From an uncultured Candidatus Saccharibacteria bacterium (GTDB taxonomy: Bacteria; Patescibacteriota; Minisyncoccia; Phycocordibacterales; UBA918): 50,145 bases of DNA. The notes beneath the pieces are model-generated. The model searched no databases, had not been told where the DNA came from, and saw nothing but the letters and a program-made list of their open reading frames with translations. Positions within the stretch are counted from its first letter, which is position 1; every line of letters starts with the position of its first letter. Location: assembly GCA_964611205.1 (NCBI GenBank), contig CAZSZB010000003.1:89764-139908 (forward strand). The letters are read 5' to 3'. Below, one piece after another: positions 13,765 to 50,145 of this stretch. The translations under genes were made by a program, and so were the position numbers.

Positions 13765-16700
13765 ATGAATAAAGAAAATAAAGCCACTTTGGCGACAGAA
13801 AAAAGTGAAGTAGCATTGCGTGAAGAATCCGTAAAAGCCTTTTGGGAGGAACACGATATTTTTAAAAAAAGTTTAGAGACACCGGCCGGTAATAAACCTG
13901 TGGGTGATTTTGTTTTTTATGATGGACCACCTTTTGCAACTGGTCTACCACACTATGGTCATATTCTAGCCAGCACAGTAAAAGATGCGGTACCTCGGTT
14001 TTGGACTATGCAGGGGTATAAAGTACGCCGTCAGTGGGGTTGGGATTGTCATGGCTTGCCGGTAGAAAATCTTATAGAAAAGAAACTAGGCCTAGCTACC
14101 AAAAGAGATATTGAAGAGTATGGAATTAAGAATTTCAATGAGCAGGCTCGCAGTACAGTGATGGAGTATGCTGATGAATGGAAGGTGACTATTCCTCGGC
14201 TGGGTCGTTGGGCTGATATGGAAGATGATTATAAGACAATGGATTCCAGTTATACCGAAAGTGTCTGGTGGGTTTTTTCGGAGTTGAACAAAAAAGGTTT
14301 GGTGTTTGAAGGCTTTAAAAGTATGCACCTTTGCCCTCGTTGCGGTACTACTCTCTCTAACTTTGAGGTAAACCTGGGTTATAAAGATATCAAAGATATC
14401 GCTGTCTTTGTGACCCTTCCTTTTACAGAAACTATCTTAGCCAAAGATGAACCGCAAACATCTCTATTGGTTTGGACCACTACCCCTTGGACATTGCCGG
14501 GGAATATGGCTGCTGCCGTTCATCAAGACTATAATTACGCCGTGGTAGAAATGACCGGAGAGGAAGCGATTCCGGCTAAACGATTCTTACTGGCAAAAGA
14601 TAGAGTAGAAAACGTTTTTGGTGAAGTTGAATATAAAGTGGTGGGTGAAGTAAAGGGTTCTGATTTAGTAGGTAAAAAATATGAGCCACCATTTGATACT
14701 TGGTCAAAGCAACAGTTTGAAGGTAAAGAAAATGCCTGGCAAGTTTATCACGCTGATTATGTTGAGTTGGGCGAGACAGGAACCGGTGCTGTTCATTTAG
14801 CTCCAGCCTACGGCGAGGAAGATATGCAACTAGCAAAAGAGAATGGGGTACCAATCGTACACCATGTTGACGAGAGTGGGCACTTTAAAGATTTTGTCGA
14901 AGGTTTTGGTTGTCAGTTAGTGAAGCCAAAGGATGATGATGAAGCTGGTGTTAATCATAAAGATGCCGATATTGAGGTTCTTAAAAAGCTCCAGGAAAAA
15001 GACCGCTTATTTAAAAAAGAAAATATTGCTCATAGTTACCCGCACTGCTGGCGTTGTGACACCCCGCTACTTAATTACGCTACCACTTCGTGGTTTGTCG
15101 ATGTGCCAAGTATCAAAGATAAGTTGGTAGCAGAAAATGATAAAATCCACTGGGTTCCAGAATATGTTGGGACTAATCGTTTTGGTAGATGGCTAGAAGG
15201 AGCTCGAGACTGGGCAGTATCAAGACAGCGTTACTGGGGCGCTCCGTTACCGATTTGGCAAAATCCAGAAACCAAAGAATATAAAATATTTGGTTCTCTT
15301 GAAGATTTGCAAGCACACACTCCCAAGAACGGTAATAGTTATTTGCTAATGCGGCACGGAGAAAGTGATAGCAATCTAACTGGAACAATTAGTAGTAAAA
15401 AAACTGACAAAAATCACTTAACAGCTGAGGGAATATCTCAAACAGAGGCAGCTTCTGAGGCACTACCAAAAGATATTGATGTCATCATTCATTCAGGATT
15501 TGCTCGCACGAAAGAAACAGCTGAAATTATCAGCAAAAAGTATCCCGAAGCTCAAATCATAGAGGATGACCGAATTAGAGAGCTGGATTTGGCGGATGAT
15601 TTTGCTGGCAAAATCTGGGATGAATACAATAACCAGTTTGCTACTTGGTCTGATCGATATACGGAAGAATTGCCAGGTAGTGAGAATCGTCGCGATGTGC
15701 AGATTAGAATGGGGCAATTCATAGAAGCGATAGATAAGGAGTATAAAGATAAAAAAATCTTATTAATTGGTCATGCTGGACCATTCTTTGCCCTAGAATC
15801 TGTTGTGCGAGGACTGAACATCAAAGCCGCCAAAAAATTCTTTGAGCAACCAAATGCATATTTAAAAAATGCTGAGATACGAGAGTTGGAATATCTACCA
15901 ATACCACATAATGATAATTATGAACTAGATTTCCACCGACCTTATATAGATGACTTCTTAGTTTATGATGAGTCTGGTACCAAATTAGAAAGGATACCTG
16001 ACGTTTTTGATTGTTGGTTCGAGTCGGGTTCTATGCCTTACGGACAATATCATTACCCATTTGAAAACAAGGAAGAGTTTGAACAAAAATTATACCCAGC
16101 CAACTTTATTGCTGAAGGACTTGATCAAACCCGAGGTTGGTTCTACTCATTAATAGTATTAGGGACTGCTCTTTTTGGTAAAAGTCCATACCAAAATGTG
16201 ATGGTCAACGGTTTAATAATGGCGGAGGATGGTAAGAAGCTCAGTAAAAAACTACAGAACTACTCAGAGCCACTACAACTAGCTAATCAGGTTGGGGCAG
16301 ATTCGATGCGTTTTTACCTACTCTCTTCACCAGTAGTCAGAGCTGAAGATATTAGTTTTTCAGATAAGGAAGTAATGGATTTGCAGCGGAAAAATATTGG
16401 ACGTCTCCATAATGTTCTTACTATGTATCAAACTTATGCTGACGAAAAAGTATCTGAAACGGCTACTTCGCCACAAGTATTAGATAGGTGGATTGTAGCC
16501 AGGTTGAATGAAACGGTAGCTGAGATAACTACTAGTTATAAAAATTACGAATTAGATAAAGCTACTAGACCAATTACAGACTTGATAGATGATTTATCGG
16601 TTTGGTATTTGCGCCGTAGTCGTGATCGTTTGAAAGGTCTAGATATTAAAGATAAAGAATTAGCACTTGGTACTCTGCGGTTGGTGCTGAAAAAACTATC

Positions 16701-17304
16701 TCTAGTAATGGCTCCCGCAATGCCATTTTATGCAGAATATCTTTTCCAAGCTGTGAAAACAGAAGATGATCAGGAGAGTGTTCACTTGATGAAATGGCCT
16801 GATGTTAACGAAGTGGATAAAGAAGTTCTGGCCACCATGACGGCAGTACGTGAGGTGGTGAAAGCTGCTTTAGAAGTGAGAGCAAAGTCTGGAGTGAAGA
16901 CCAGGCAACCCCTGGGTGTCTTACGAGTGCAAGGAGAAGCTTTTGACTCAGCTTATATTCCACTTTTAGAAGAAGAGGTGAATGTGAAAGAGGTAAATTT
17001 TGTAGCAGACTTAGATGAAAAAGTAGAGCTTGATTTAACTATAACTCCAGAATTACAAGCTGAAGGCGATGTTCGAGAATTTGTTCGCGCTATTCAGGAG
17101 TTGCGTAAAGAAGCCGGTTTGCAACCGAGCGATCGAATCATTCTAAATGTTCAGACTGCTACTGCTGGAGAGGCTGTTCTCAAACAGTATATGGATGATA
17201 TTACTCAGACTGTTGGAGCTAATGAAATCAAGTTCACAAGCGTCACCGGTGAAGAAATCAAAGCGGGCACACACTCCTTTGTGGTCCAGATGGAAAAAAA
17301 GTAA
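13765..17304 (+). CDS. ileS: Isoleucine--tRNA ligase (type 2) with inserted histidine-phosphatase domain
   Basis: FYDGPPFATGLPHYGH, GWDCHGLPVE, WTTTPWTLP, SRQRYWG, DCWFESGSMP, AEGLDQTRGWF, KLSKK; RHGES...GHAG insert at about 15331-15900. Confidence 0.95.
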   Translation: MNKENKATLATEKSEVALREESVKAFWEEHDIFKKSLETPAGNKPVGDFVFYDGPPFATGLPHYGHILASTVKDAVPRFWTMQGYKVRRQWGWDCHGLPVENLIEKKLGLATKRDIEEYGIKNFNEQARSTVMEYADEWKVTIPRLGRWADMEDDYKTMDSSYTESVWWVFSELNKKGLVFEGFKSMHLCPRCGTTLSNFEVNLGYKDIKDIAVFVTLPFTETILAKDEPQTSLLVWTTTPWTLPGNMAAAVHQDYNYAVVEMTGEEAIPAKRFLLAKDRVENVFGEVEYKVVGEVKGSDLVGKKYEPPFDTWSKQQFEGKENAWQVYHADYVELGETGTGAVHLAPAYGEEDMQLAKENGVPIVHHVDESGHFKDFVEGFGCQLVKPKDDDEAGVNHKDADIEVLKKLQEKDRLFKKENIAHSYPHCWRCDTPLLNYATTSWFVDVPSIKDKLVAENDKIHWVPEYVGTNRFGRWLEGARDWAVSRQRYWGAPLPIWQNPETKEYKIFGSLEDLQAHTPKNGNSYLLMRHGESDSNLTGTISSKKTDKNHLTAEGISQTEAASEALPKDIDVIIHSGFARTKETAEIISKKYPEAQIIEDDRIRELDLADDFAGKIWDEYNNQFATWSDRYTEELPGSENRRDVQIRMGQFIEAIDKEYKDKKILLIGHAGPFFALESVVRGLNIKAAKKFFEQPNAYLKNAEIRELEYLPIPHNDNYELDFHRPYIDDFLVYDESGTKLERIPDVFDCWFESGSMPYGQYHYPFENKEEFEQKLYPANFIAEGLDQTRGWFYSLIVLGTALFGKSPYQNVMVNGLIMAEDGKKLSKKLQNYSEPLQLANQVGADSMRFYLLSSPVVRAEDISFSDKEVMDLQRKNIGRLHNVLTMYQTYADEKVSETATSPQVLDRWIVARLNETVAEITTSYKNYELDKATRPITDLIDDLSVWYLRRSRDRLKGLDIKDKELALGTLRLVLKKLSLVMAPAMPFYAEYLFQAVKTEDDQESVHLMKWPDVNEVDKEVLATMTAVREVVKAALEVRAKSGVKTRQPLGVLRVQGEAFDSAYIPLLEEEVNVKEVNFVADLDEKVELDLTITPELQAEGDVREFVRAIQELRKEAGLQPSDRIILNVQTATAGEAVLKQYMDDITQTVGANEIKFTSVTGEEIKAGTHSFVVQMEKK

Positions 17305-39736: not shown

Positions 39737-39861
39737 TCCTCGTTTGACTTAACTTAGCTTGTCTAAGTTAAACCAACCCGGTCTAATTGCCTGATGGCAA
39801 AGATCTAGAAGGTAGAGCTAAAAGCTAGAAATAGCTAAAGCTAAAAACTGAGCCTCGGCTC

Positions 39862-39897
39862 AAACAAAAAAGCCCCCTTTGCGGGGCTTTTTTGTTT
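39862..39897. terminator. Terminator after the surface-protein gene
   Basis: aaacaaaaaagcccc...ggggcttttttgttt. Confidence 0.8.
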
Positions 39898-46678: not shown

Positions 46679-47354
46679 ACCGGTCATTATCTATGAGTAT
46701 CACTTTAATTAAATCGTAGCGGAGCGAAATCGTCTTGCGATTTTGAGCCGCGTCAAGCGGTTTTTTTAAGGCCAAAAACTCATGAGGGTAATGCAGTTTC
46801 TTTGAAAACTTATCGGTCAATTTTGAAATAAATTGATACGATATGCATATCCTTTAGAGACCCCGCAACAGGATTGGGGTCTCGAGAAGTCCTAGTGTGG
46901 AATCGACGCCCACTAGGCAGGTTCGTATTGCTCCGTTACTCGTGATCGCAATACGAACATCAGGTAGTTTGTCGGGATTAGATCCCAATAGGGTCATATC
47001 GACCCGGGTCTTTTCGTCCCCGGCAAACAATCAAACAAAATGTTGTATCCTTCAAAAGATACAACAAACACACACAGTCTTCGCAGGTATGCGAAGACGA
47101 CACTCAAACAAAAATGTACAGCGGTGTACAGCATTCCTTGCAGGAATGTAAGGGTGTATGGTGGATGCCTAGGTTATAGGAAGCGATGAAAGACGTGGAA
47201 TGGCTGCGATAAGTTTCGGCGAGGTGCCAACCAACCTTCGACCCGGAAATTTCTGAATGGGGAAACCCCACAAGCGTAGGCTTGTGACCCTATGTATGTA
47301 GGGAGCACACCCAGGGAAGTGAAACATCTCAGTACCTGGAGGAATAGAAAGCAA

Positions 47355-47432
47355 TAAACGGAACTTTCTTTCTGATCGGATTTGTTGTGGTAGTACACAA
47401 TAAGCCATTACGGTCAGGAAGAAGGTTCTTGC
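47355..47432 (+). other. About 78-nt hairpin expansion/IVS in 23S domain I
   Basis: Replaces about 4 nt between AAAGCAA and GATTCCC; arms gaactttctttctgatcg / cggtcaggaagaaggttc. Confidence 0.7.
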
Positions 47433-47443
47433 GATTCCCTGAA

Positions 47444-47475
<32 letters not shown>

Positions 47476-47701
47476 GTACGTGTTTACATGTGCGGGGTTG
47501 TAGGACAAAGTCTGCATTTAGTTGCGGAGAGTTACAAAACGTAAGGATAGCAAAAGTAGCTGGGAAGCTACACCCTAGTGGGTAATAGTCCCGTATGCGA
47601 AATTTTTACGACTCTCTTGATTTTGCTCCTGAGTAGTTCGAGACATGAATGGCTCGAATGAATCTGCCGGTACTGACCGGTAAGGCTAAATATTCCTATA
47701 A

Positions 47702-47746
<45 letters not shown>

Positions 47747-48307
47747 GGAGAGGGGAGTGAAATAGATCTGAAACCATACACTTACAAGGAGTCACGGCCC
47801 TGCGGGGTTGTGGCGTGCCTATTGAAGAATGAGCCGGCGAGTGTACCTTTATCCTTTGTCTAAGTGGTAACCCCACGCAGGCACAGTGAAAGCGAGCGTT
47901 AAAAGCGCGAATATAGGGTAGGGGTACGACCCGAAGCGGGATGAGCTTGCCATGAGCAGGGTGAAGCGAAAGTAAAATTTCGTGGAGGCCCGAACCGGTT
48001 GACCGTACAAAATCATCGGATGACTTGTGGTAAGGAGTGAAAAGCTTATCGAATTCCGTAATAGCTGGTTCTCTCCGAAACAGCTTTAGGGTTGGCGTCG
48101 AGTGGTCCCAACGGGGGTAGAGCACTGGAAAGAGTAAACAGGGGGAAACCTCGTTACTCTTATCAAACTCCGAATACCGTTTGGTTATAGCTCGGCAGTT
48201 AGACTATGGGGGAGAAGCTCCATTGGTCGAAAGGGAAACAGCCCAGATCGCCAGTTAAGGTCCCTAAATATATGCTCAGTGCAACTTGAGGAGGTGAGGA
48301 TTCACCA

Positions 48308-48342
<35 letters not shown>

Positions 48343-48973
48343 TAAAGATAGCGTAACAGCTCACTGGTCGAGAGTCCTTGCGCCGAAGATGATCGGGGCT
48401 CAAGCATATTACCGAAACTGCGGATTCGTACTTCTTTCGGGAAGTACGAGTGGTAGGAGAGCGTTCTATTCTGCGATGAAGCCAAGGGGTGACCCACGGT
48501 GGAGCGTATAGAAGTGAGAATGCCGGCACAAGTAACCGCAAGGAGGGTGAGACCCCCTCCCGCCGAAATACCGAGGTTTCCTGGGCGATGGTGATCAGCC
48601 CAGGGTTAGTCGGTCCTAAGCCGATCCCGAACGGGGGAGGCGATGGATAGCAGGTTAATATTCCTGCACACAGTATTCGTTCCGATGGAGGGACGGAGCG
48701 TTGTACTCAAAGCATCTTATTGGATTGGTGCTGGAGGGCTGAGGAGGTTATCTAGGTAAATCCGGATAACAATACTCCGAGGTCAGTCTGAATGTGAGCA
48801 TACGTGCAAGCAAATTTGGGGAGCACGCTTCCGAGAAAAACTTCTAAGGTAGTACGCGTACTGTTCCGTACCTAAACCGACACAGGTGGTAAGGTCGAGA
48901 AGACCAAGGCGAACGAGTGAGAGGTCCTTAAGGAACTCGGCAAAAAAGCGGCCGTAACTTCGGGATAAGGCCT

Positions 48974-49080
48974 GCCCAGCTCTACTTTTGCAAGTGGAGT
49001 GTCAATTTCACAATGTACTTAAACTAAGTGTTTGAGAACGGTGAATTGTTGATATTCAAAATGCAAAAGTAGGGCTGGGC
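48974..49080 (+). other. 107-nt helix-63 expansion/IVS (CCCAGC family copy B)
   Basis: gcccagctctacttttgca / tgcaaaagtagggctgggc, 19 bp with one G.U. Confidence 0.75.
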
Positions 49081-49272
49081 CGCAGCGAAAGATTTCCTGG
49101 CGACTGTTTAACAAAAACATAGCTCCCTGCGAACTCGTAAGAGGATGTATAGGGGGTGACGCCTGACCAATGCCGGAAGGTTAAATACGGGGGGTGATAT
49201 GAACTTCGGTTTGTATTGCTGGACTGTATAAGCCCCGGTCAATGTCAGCGATAACTATAATCGTTCTAAGGT

Positions 49273-49578
49273 AGAGCGCATTTGCTTCGGTAAGTACGCT
49301 CTACGGACTGGAACGATTATAGATTAAACAGACCCAGCCATAGTTACCTTGTTTTGTAGAAATACTTAACATAGTCCATACCTAGCCAACGAGAGACCAA
49401 ATGCTAGGCACCCCGCCCCACTTTTGTCCATACGGACATTAGTGGGAAGGCTTCATATTTTTTAGAAATATTATCTTATGAAAATAAGTGTAATAGTTAC
49501 AAAAGTGGAGCTGGGTGAAGATAGAGTCCTATTGTGCACACATGATTAAGGTTCATGTAGCAAAAGAAGGAAAGATAG
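49273..49578 (+). ncRNA. 306-nt ORF-less intron/insertion in 23S rRNA at E. coli position 1931/1932, group-I-like
   Basis: Exons CTAAGGT | AGCGTATTTCCTTGTCGGG rejoin conserved rRNA; 5' exon ends in U, insert ends in G; AAGATAGAGTCC (49518) resembles J8/7-P7. Confidence 0.75.
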
Positions 49579-50145
49579 AGCGTATTTCCTTGTCGGGTAA
49601 GTTCCGACGTGCACGAATGGCGTAACGACCGGGAAACTGTCTCAAGGACCTGCTCGGTGAAAATACAATCCCGGTAAAGATGCCGGGTACCTGCAGTTAG
49701 ACGAAAAGACCCCAGGAGCTTTACTGTAGCTTCGTATTGGGGCTATTGAATTCATGCGTAGTATAGTGGGGAGACTTTGAAGCGGGCTTTCGGGTACCGT
49801 GGAGTCGTCAGTGAAATACCCATCTTGTTTTTGGTAGTCTCTAACCTGGTAGGAAAAACCTATCAGGAACAGTGCGTGGCAGGCAGTTTTAGTGGGGCGC
49901 TACCCTCCTAAAGAGTAACGGAGGGGTACCAAGGTCAACTAGGCGCGAATGGAAACCGTGCCGATAGTGTAATGGCAAAAGTTGGCTTGACTGTAAGGCG
50001 TAGGTGCCAAGCAGACACGAAAGTGGGTCATAGTGAACCGATGGTGCGCTTTAGATGCGGCCGGAGATTACCCGATAAAAGTTACCCTGGGGATAACAGG
50101 CTAGTCGTGCCCAAGCGTCCATAGCGACGGCACGGTTCGGCACCT

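Follow-up and report, generated by a model that had tools for sequence, protein, structure and literature searches.

The 23S rRNA gene at the end of the window, i.e. the whole 50,145-nt stretch of DNA analysed here, is interrupted by a 306-nt insert that holds the P3/P7/P8/J8-7/P9.0 core of a group I intron and lacks the P4-P6 domain. Sequence comparisons indicate that compact, P4-P6-less introns of this kind form a widespread family at L1931 in Patescibacteria (CPR), and that this family is a derived branch of the ordinary L1931 group I introns. For two relatives, L218 and L186, exact exon ligation occurs in vivo. The insert is probably a functional, endonuclease-free and compact descendant of an L1931 group I intron, which has retained the active site and would owe its stability to clamps on the exons, to its 5' domain or to a protein.

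Anatomy of the insert and its host gene

According to the Rfam alignment of bacterial LSU rRNA, an insertion of around 309 nt separates CUAAGGU from AGCG. Counting from the conserved H69 sequence, we take its position to be directly 3' of U1931 in E. coli numbering. The site and the boundaries, with U as the last base of the 5' exon and G as the last base of the intron, agree in coordinates and sequence with those given in an earlier, sequence-only reading of this DNA. The boundary was set by intron-less rRNAs and by the RNA joints of relatives, and is unambiguous where the introns of the relatives begin with other bases. Based on exon identity (91.9 %), the closest sequence is that of a MAG labelled Candidatus Saccharibacteria (L076), and the sequence was found in landfill, leachate, wastewater and biofilm metagenomes. 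The features discussed in the following are:

47138-50145, + strand: 23S rRNA gene hosting the intron (Rfam RF02541, 1964.9 bits, model positions 1-2526); the gene leaves the window at its end
26072-26174, strand unassigned: intergenic copy of the P8 palindromic repeat
48973-49081, + strand: copy of the P8 palindromic repeat at the tip of what is presumably 23S helix 63, numbered by comparison with the E. coli sequence
49255-49268, + strand: exon strand of helix X, i.e. the loop and 3' strand of helix 69 and two more bases; pairs with 49309-49322
49269-49272, + strand: end of the 5' exon, AGGU, which would pair with the putative guide as P1; U49272 is the last base before the 5' splice site
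49273-49578, + strand: intron, 306 nt; the 5' exon ends with U49272 and the last intron base is G49578
49273-49302, + strand: hairpin A, starting at intron base +1, with a C(UUCG)G tip; the conserved A49303 (and C49304) come next
49305-49308, + strand: 5' strand of helix B, GGAC; pairs with GUCC at 49374-49377
49309-49322, + strand: intron side of helix X, which clamps helix 69 of the exon; 99.4 % paired
49343-49350, + strand: putative internal guide sequence GUUACCUU; P10 part 49343-45 with AGC at 49579-81, P1 part 49346-50 with AAGGU
49351-49370, + strand: hairpin C (P2-like), GAAA loop at 49359-62
49374-49377, + strand: 3' strand of helix B, GUCC; pairs with 49305-49308
49381-49408, + strand: P3 (49381-86 with 49403-08), enclosing J3/7 (49387-92) and the 5' strand of P7 (49393-97)
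49409-49517, + strand: P8, extended by about 80 nt by the palindromic repeat
49518-49529, + strand: J8/7 AAGAUAGA and the 3' strand of P7, GUCC; fits the Rfam consensus gAAGAUAUAGUC
49530-49532, + strand: 5' strand of P9.0, UAU; pairs with AUA at 49575-77, directly 5' of the terminal G
49533-49566, + strand: P9 region, with a hairpin (49540-45 with 49553-58) read from the sequence
49567-49573, + strand: intron strand of the 3' clamp, AAGGAAA; pairs with UUUCCUU of the 3' exon at 49585-91
49578, + strand: terminal (omega) G; the 3' splice site follows it
49579-49591, + strand: 3' exon bases predicted to pair with the intron, i.e. AGC (P10) and UUUCCUU (clamp)

With the Rfam group I model, the window copy reaches 33.1 bits (E value 1e-6 on 551 nt) against a gathering score of 50, and thus stays below the level of a standard group I intron. 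The model aligns GAGAGACCAAAUG as the 5' strand of P7 and P3', the long stem as P8, and AAGAUAGAGUCC as J8/7 and P7', so that the R-like segment, long stem and following sequence noted earlier are all present in that order. The absence of P4-P6, which had also been noted, was borne out: 81 model positions, corresponding to P4-P6, are deleted with 1 nt of sequence opposite, the interior of P3 amounts to only 16 nt, and CAACGA (49387-92) is all that lies between P3 and P7. This gap between the 5' strands of P3 and P7 measures 5-6 nt in every family member. Within the remaining 47 kb of the window (1-47300), a search for group I-like pieces gave no additional match, and a P4-P6 domain encoded there in trans was rejected. 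The scan of 49273-49578 gave no ORF longer than 36 aa, in agreement with the earlier statement that a homing endonuclease is missing.

In one respect the core is more regular than previously read. Instead of a P7 with two mismatches, the sequence can be read as 4 bp and a bulged A, i.e. G49393-C49529, bulged A49394, G49395-C49528, A49396-U49527 and C49397-G49526, a register that we take to be that of the Tetrahymena intron. The P7 of the window intron is therefore predicted to have the canonical geometry of a guanosine site.

The long stem was correctly recognized as P8 containing a repeat hairpin. The repeat element is palindromic and about 100 nt long, and its ends, CACCCAGCYCCACTTT...AAAGTGGRGCTGGGTG, recur at 26072-26174 and 48973-49081. 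It extends the distance from P3' to J8/7 to 114 nt in the window copy, compared with 23-44 nt in 87 relatives; the pattern used for the metagenome search left out long P8s, and the insertion may therefore be less unusual than it appears. Hairpin C of the window copy contains two U·U mismatches. The loop of the P9 hairpin, UUAAGGU, is a copy of the 5' exon end, and one subfamily has NAAGG-type loops.

Two other types of element were tried and rejected. The heptamer TAGAGCG (49272-78 and 49576-82) could be taken as the target-site duplication of a transposon; it is found only where hairpin A copies the 3' exon, and the introns of other members start with UUGG, UCAG, ACCG, etc. A bulge-helix-bulge intron was likewise not supported.

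Covariation, putative guide sequence and exon clamps

The L1931 inserts of CPR bacteria, whose collection for covariation analysis had been proposed in the sequence-only reading, yielded 88 distinct sequences, which were aligned together with 30 nt of flanking exon per side. Over these 88 sequences, a model of 61 pairs is 95.2 % paired, compared with 82.5 % in shuffles and around 40 % with the partners slid, and its covariation score of 0.371 (0.146 when shuffled) was reached by 0 of 500 shuffles. Helix X, hairpins A and C, P3, P8 and the 3' clamp were also recovered by RNAalifold without an input model.

Changes on both sides were seen at 10 of the 13 pairs of hairpin A (the first pair being AU in 30, CG in 17, UA in 15 and UG in 12 sequences), at all seven counted pairs of hairpin C with its GNRA loop, and at all three pairs of P9.0, which is 100 % paired and lies beside the invariant terminal G. 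This G is present in 88 of 88 aligned sequences, and the RNA joints of the relatives fall exactly there. Five of the six pairs of P3 (99 % paired) and four of the five at the base of P8 covary. Helix B is 97 % paired, with a both-side change at one of its four pairs, and its last pair is CG in 51 and UA in 30 sequences. P7 is 100 % paired and invariant across the family, although the invariance of J8/7 and of the P7 3' strand is partly by construction, since both search patterns required them. The pairings of P1, P10 and P7 give no covariation signal because the exons and P7 are invariant. The bases directly 3' of hairpin A read AC in 54, A in 29, UA in 4 and C in 3 of 90 sequences. Taken as a whole, the intron shows purifying selection and covariation across more than 80 distinct sequences.

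Among the single-stranded stretches, AGYUACCUU, directly 5' of hairpin C, shows the highest conservation. Its GYUACCUU part (49343-50) is complementary to the ligated junction AAGGU/AGC, with five pairs to the 5' exon and three to the 3' exon, and is 98.7 % paired in the 88 sequences, in which the exons are invariant; under the same condition, the complementarity of AGGU (49269-49272) to ACCU (49346-49349) corresponds to 98-100 % pairing. The Y, i.e. U in 72 and C in 16 sequences, stands opposite an invariant G of the 3' exon, and a guide-like site arises by chance in 1.5 % of shuffled introns. Within this guide the predicted partner of U1931 is A49346, which gives U-A in all 88 sequences. The likewise conserved A49303, 3' of hairpin A, is the other possible partner, and G·U is absent either way. 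The replacement of G·U by U-A at the 5' splice site was already part of the sequence-only reading, which had located P1 in the hairpin gtagagcg/cgctctac across the splice site. That hairpin is real and does place an A opposite U1931; as to P1, it is probably an extension beside it, as GUUACCUU is position-for-position homologous to the guide CGUU-G-CCU of P4-P6-containing relatives (L005 type). The guide, P9.0 (49530-32 with 49575-77) and the 3' clamp (49567-73 with 49585-91) go beyond what had been noted earlier.

Several other pairings were examined and discarded. GCCAUAG (49339-45) as a guide with G·U needs an A·A mismatch and is not conserved in the divergent L205, L163 and L095. Pairing of AUAGUUA to the loop of helix 69 would turn the change between U and C at 49344 into A·C mismatches with an invariant exon, whereas this change fits the 3' exon as G·U/G-C. 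The 3' strand of hairpin A does not serve as a general P10: it is complementary over 12 nt in the window copy, but a complementary run of at least 9 occurs in only 29 of 88 members. The mean complementary run between hairpin A and the 3' exon is 7.6, compared with 4.6 in shuffled sequences, and a P10 of this kind is a subfamily feature. CUAAG of the exon and UAUGG of the intron were dismissed as the strands of an 11-nt GAAA receptor, since they are not opposite each other in the model.

Upstream of the guide, the intron pairs with helix 69. The exact 12-nt complement between intron 49311-49322 and exon 49255-49266, which the sequence-only reading had pointed out, was confirmed as the core of helix X (12 bp); of 20000 shuffled introns, only 12 contain a complement of this length to the final 30 bases of the exon. 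RNAalifold lengthens this helix by U49267 with G/A49310 (UG in 61 and UA in 27 sequences) and by A49268 with U49309, whereby the last 18 exon bases would all be paired to the intron. Helix X and helix B cross and thus make up a pseudoknot. The intron strand carries 35 A-to-G changes, all opposite U, while the exon strand is almost invariant; where the exon has C at the position of 49265 (L163, L168 and L205), the intron has G, i.e. a compensation from U-A to C-G, which may be a single evolutionary event. These changes support a genuine pairing between exon and intron. On the other side of the junction, the 3' clamp is 97.6 % paired, with a both-side change at one of seven pairs (AU in 54 and UA in 28 sequences) and 25 other changes leading to G·U.

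Extent of the family and relationship to canonical L1931 introns

GTDB genomes were scanned with the pattern AGATANAGTC, 40-70 nt, GTCGGGTAAGTTCCGAC, which matched at least 119 loci, most of them ordinary group I introns at L1931 (or neighbouring positions) in many phyla. At least 13 short members of 197-249 nt align with the window copy over the whole length, and their MAGs are labelled as Saccharibacteria, Paceibacteria, Nomurabacteria and Kaiserbacteria, with L077 labelled only as 'bacterium'. Metagenomes were scanned with a core pattern independent of the exons, resulting in at least 120 loci, of which at least 105 are full-length L1931 members of 186-262 nt; two members of 415 nt carry an extra hairpin. 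All family members listed are located at L1931 in CPR-type 23S genes. Their elements follow a common order, i.e. hairpin A, A, GGAC, the helix 69 complement, AGYUACCUU, a GNRA hairpin, GUCC, P3 enclosing only J3/7 and P7, P8, J8/7, P9.0 and the 3' exon clamp. In both alignments the window copy possesses each of these elements in register and, apart from the P8 insertion, departs from the family consensus at only one column of at least 90 % conservation (49323).

In CPR bacteria, L1931 corresponds to site 23IS7, which is known to harbour group I introns with LAGLIDADG genes such as the I-ShaI intron, and a P4-P6-less architecture was not described in the survey of CPR rRNA insertions (PMC11270868). 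The compact introns share with the canonical introns of this site, which occur in bacterial and organellar 23S rRNA, the order P1-P2-P3-P7-P3'-P8-J8/7-P7'-P9.0-P9, the sequences of J8/7 and P7, the terminal G and a predicted guide spanning the junction. In contrast, canonical L1931 introns possess P4-P6 and the splice-site G·U, frequently along with a GAAA L9 loop and an endonuclease gene; the compact introns have none of these, i.e. a U-A pair and no GNRA L9 loop, and show a new 3' exon clamp. Three ordinary L1931 introns that are likewise short and endonuclease-free (L091, L017 and L097) score 72.7-92.6 bits and pass the Rfam threshold, whereas five other compact members tested gave no group I intron at the gathering threshold.

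Larger relatives are the introns of L005 (a Falkowbacteria MAG), L024 and L111, which are 745-750 nt long and interrupt CPR-type exons at the same site. Like the compact introns, they possess hairpin A, helix B and the clamp on helix 69, i.e. hairpin A followed by A, GGACUGG and GACGAUUAUGG, with around 30 nt nearly identical to L168. An E-value search with Rfam aligns a P4-P6 domain in this type, and P8 contains a LAGLIDADG_1 gene (97 bits). At the gathering threshold, L005 and L111 give no intron match, presumably because of the ORF in P8. Their guide, CGUU-G-CCU, has the wobble G where the compact AGYU-A-CCUU has A, corresponding to a G to A change at the wobble partner; furthermore, the GAAA L9 loop is present and the 3' clamp absent.

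Since the L005 type shares the 5' domain and yet keeps P4-P6, G·U and the LAGLIDADG gene, the compact form is the derived one. It lost P4-P6, the endonuclease gene, the wobble pair and the L9 tetraloop, and gained the clamp on the 3' exon. In canonical group I introns, recognition of the wobble pair falls to J4/5 of P4-P6, and L9 docks into P5. As the helix 69 clamp is older than the loss of P4-P6, it is not in itself the replacement for this domain. The description of the insert as a minimal or degenerate group-I-like ribozyme in the sequence-only reading is broadly right, while its alternative suggestion of a new intron type does not, given the derivation from L1931 group I introns.

Splicing, probable mechanism and significance

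Evidence for splicing comes from assembled RNA contigs of relatives. In a wastewater metatranscriptome, a 655-nt contig (depth 43.1) of L218 skips exactly the 220-nt intron (634-853) and matches 332 + 266 nt (598 nt) of exon without a mismatch, with the joint placed within a 2-nt ambiguity. The inside of the intron formed a separate contig (645-830, depth 18.4), and no contig crossed either junction. In two further runs this piece was again separate, at a depth below that of the exon contigs. In L186, where the intron occupies 2533-2753, a contig of 263 nt (depth 18.6) has 2532 followed exactly by 2754, and an intron contig covers 2552-2722 (depth 30.3), contig depth being a poor measure of abundance. 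The ligated exons of these relatives represent the spliced product that the sequence-only reading depended on. Formally, such contigs could also derive from an intron-less second rRNA allele or from DNA carry-over. The intron contigs, however, end inside the intron, where precursor or DNA would run into the exons, and therefore suggest a free and fairly stable excised intron.

For the organism of the window, no RNA was found; runs X25, X49, X50, X58, X60 and X61 contained only conserved exon words or two DNA-like 151-nt pieces. In X49, the exons of a relative were ligated in one contig (depth 12.2) and a fragment of a related intron was present (depth 3.4), the two possibly being from different organisms. 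Joints of 49272 to 49579 in DNA runs were discarded as coming from other bacteria without the intron. We infer that the window copy is spliced as in its relatives.

The same contigs bear on the fate of the insert in the mature rRNA. It is very improbable that it is kept in 23S rRNA as an expansion, as has been reported for the L1931 intron of Simkania negevensis, considering that the exons of L218 and L186 are ligated, that their introns appear solely as separate contigs ending short of the junctions, and that helix X would hold helix 69 unfolded in such an rRNA. Even less credible is an intervening sequence excised by RNase III from a 23S rRNA that stays fragmented and unligated, or an inactive gene copy. 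Short intervening sequences are present at other sites of CPR 23S genes (PMC11270868), the insert does possess long stems, and both kinds of element consist of extra sequence in the 23S gene that is absent from mature rRNA. However, RNase III intervening sequences are situated at helix tips, are removed without ligation and have no ribozyme-like core, whereas the L1931 insert separates helix 69 from the helix that follows and is flanked by well-conserved exons (Rfam 1965 bits). In addition, the RNA contigs of the relatives are continuous across the joined exons, and the intron is subject to purifying selection and covariation over more than 80 distinct sequences.

The conserved parts of the intron are those needed for group I chemistry, and splicing therefore probably uses the retained active site. 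According to the mechanism that we favour, group I chemistry would take place in the P3-P7-P8 core. The guide (49343-50) would pair with the end of the 5' exon as P1, with U-A instead of G·U, and with AGC at the start of the 3' exon as P10, while P7 with its bulged A would offer the guanosine site, to which P9.0 would bring the terminal G49578. The exons would be held by helix X, built on the loop and 3' strand of helix 69 (12-14 bp), and by the 3' clamp (UUUCCUU, 7 bp). These clamps, together with hairpin A, helix B and the GAAA-capped hairpin C, probably replace the scaffolding otherwise provided by P4-P6, and a protein or assembly cofactor might contribute in addition. Helix 69 would be unable to form with the intron present, and would fold only after excision.

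It is less likely, albeit to be taken seriously, that the insert is a catalytically dead relic of a group I intron, whose removal and exon ligation would depend on a host protein or a trans-acting factor, as has been proposed for the short introns of lichen rDNA. The missing P4-P6 and G·U as well as the subthreshold Rfam score would fit such a relic, and the abundance of excised intron RNA in the RNA libraries is expected of a stable RNP just as of a well-folded RNA. On the other hand, the best-conserved parts are precisely the P7 guanosine site, J8/7, the terminal G with its covarying P9.0, and P1/P10, and no candidate gene for a cofactor was identified; if a cofactor merely stabilizes the fold, this explanation overlaps with the one that we prefer. 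To our knowledge, the degenerate group I introns of lichens have kept the P4-P6 core. They resemble the compact family in being shortened group I introns (233 nt on average) that are precisely removed in vivo and do not self-splice in vitro (PMC8527467), leaving self-splicing doubtful, but they are eukaryotic and nuclear, occupy other sites and are not known to have exon clamps.

Returning to the preferred reading, i.e. a functional intron with a retained active site, the question arises of how far it could act alone. We only tentatively consider that the family represents a natural, protein-independent ribozyme of around 190-220 nt, which would perform group I chemistry without P4-P6 or G·U by using helices built with the exons (helix 69 and 1938-1944) as a scaffold. 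The Azoarcus tRNA-Ile intron of about 205 nt is usually cited as the smallest self-splicing group I intron. It is similar in size to the compact introns and has a GAAA-capped P2 beside P1; unlike them, it possesses P4-P6 and G·U and resides in a tRNA anticodon loop, and the smallest compact members have 186 nt. In the work of Ikawa et al. from 2000, the Tetrahymena ribozyme without P4-P6 reportedly retains some activity, which speaks against a catalytically dead relic. Such laboratory deletions resemble the compact family in combining a P3-P9 domain and a substrate helix in the absence of the P4-P6 scaffold; however, their activity is weak, whereas the compact family is natural, widespread, under selection and equipped with extra exon-binding helices.

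Both P3-P7 and P5-P4-P6 have been called universally conserved, the latter as the scaffold of the catalytic domain (PMC6257700). In the literature outside most subscription journals, we found no description of a natural group I intron without P4-P6. Likewise, the G·U pair is treated as a hallmark of the group I 5' splice site, from which the compact family departs. A large natural family that lacks both and is nevertheless exactly removed therefore indicates to what extent the group I fold may be reduced, and the evolutionary series from the L005 type with P4-P6 to the compact type offers a route to what replaces the scaffold. Introns of this kind may also be of use as smaller splicing or circularizing ribozymes. 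For Patescibacteria, the family accounts for CPR rRNA insertions that are missed by the curated Rfam threshold, and thus bears on the annotation and reconstruction of their rRNA genes. Finally, helix 69 and the 3' exon strand would both be tied up until the intron is spliced out, which points to a connection of this step with assembly of the 50S subunit.

Excised intron RNA and variation within the compact family

Two family members with exactly ligated exons, L218 and L186, yielded excised intron RNA (positions 645-830 and 2552-2722, respectively) in the wastewater metatranscriptomes (runs X50-X52 and X60). Its contig depth was 0.4 to 1.6 times that of the flanking rRNA exons, which may reflect either an unusual stability of the excised introns or their sparing by rRNA depletion.

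In one subfamily, comprising about half of the family, the P9 loop (49546-49552 in the window) reads (U)UAAGG(U/C) and thereby copies the end of the 5' exon; this loop could pair with the guide sequence (49343-49350, complementary to the ligated junction) in place of the exon. Two identical members of 415 nt (L124 and L172) each carry an insertion of ~190 nt with long complementary ends at intron positions of about 50-240, directly 3' of the helix X strand, which pairs with the helix 69 exon. At this position, an optional short hairpin occurs in about ten further members.

Second introns and host labels

Eight sequences (L158, L216, L207, L130, L154, L160, L166 and L195) harbour a second 23S intron a few bases downstream of the compact one, with an intervening exon of about 13 or 22-24 bases. 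In the readable cases, i.e. L158 and L216, this second intron has a normal P4 (GCUAUAUGCGGG). Compact and canonical group I introns are therefore found together in the same gene, separated by very short exons. The contigs of two of the larger relatives with P4-P6 (L024 and L111) are labelled 'uncultured Gammaproteobacteria', yet both show a CPR-type helix 69 (GCGAUAACUAUAAUCGUCC) and a CPR-type intron, and are probably misbinned or mislabelled.

The 23S gene, its leader and other features of the window

Close to its 5' end, the 23S gene contains a further extra stretch (47343-47425) with complementary arms (GGAACUUUCUUUCUGAUCGG ... ACGGUCAGGAAGAAGGUUC), which may be an RNase III-type intervening sequence or an expansion. 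The leader (46850-47137) forms a series of short near-perfect hairpins, e.g. 46921-46958 and 47041-47066. Since no 16S rRNA or tRNA gene was found in the 47 kb upstream of the 23S gene, the rRNA genes seem to be unlinked.

Elsewhere, the product of 13765-17304 (1179 aa) is a class I aminoacyl-tRNA synthetase whose residues 527-703 form an inserted histidine phosphatase domain (His_Phos_1, 94 bits). In Rfam, 39761-39896 gave a weak sraL match (35.3 bits, below the threshold of 39), overlapped on the opposite strand by a weak Thr_leader match; this is probably merely a structured intergenic region.

A palindromic repeat element

Three copies of one family of palindromic elements of ~100 nt are present in the window:

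26072-26174, intergenic copy
48973-49081, copy forming the tip of 23S helix 63
49409-49517, copy in the P8 loop of the intron

Their ends of 16-19 nt are conserved (CACCCAGCYCCACTTT...AAAGTGGRGCTGGGTG), while the interiors are AT-rich and variable. The element resembles a small mobile hairpin for which the tips of RNA helices are tolerated, or targeted, sites.
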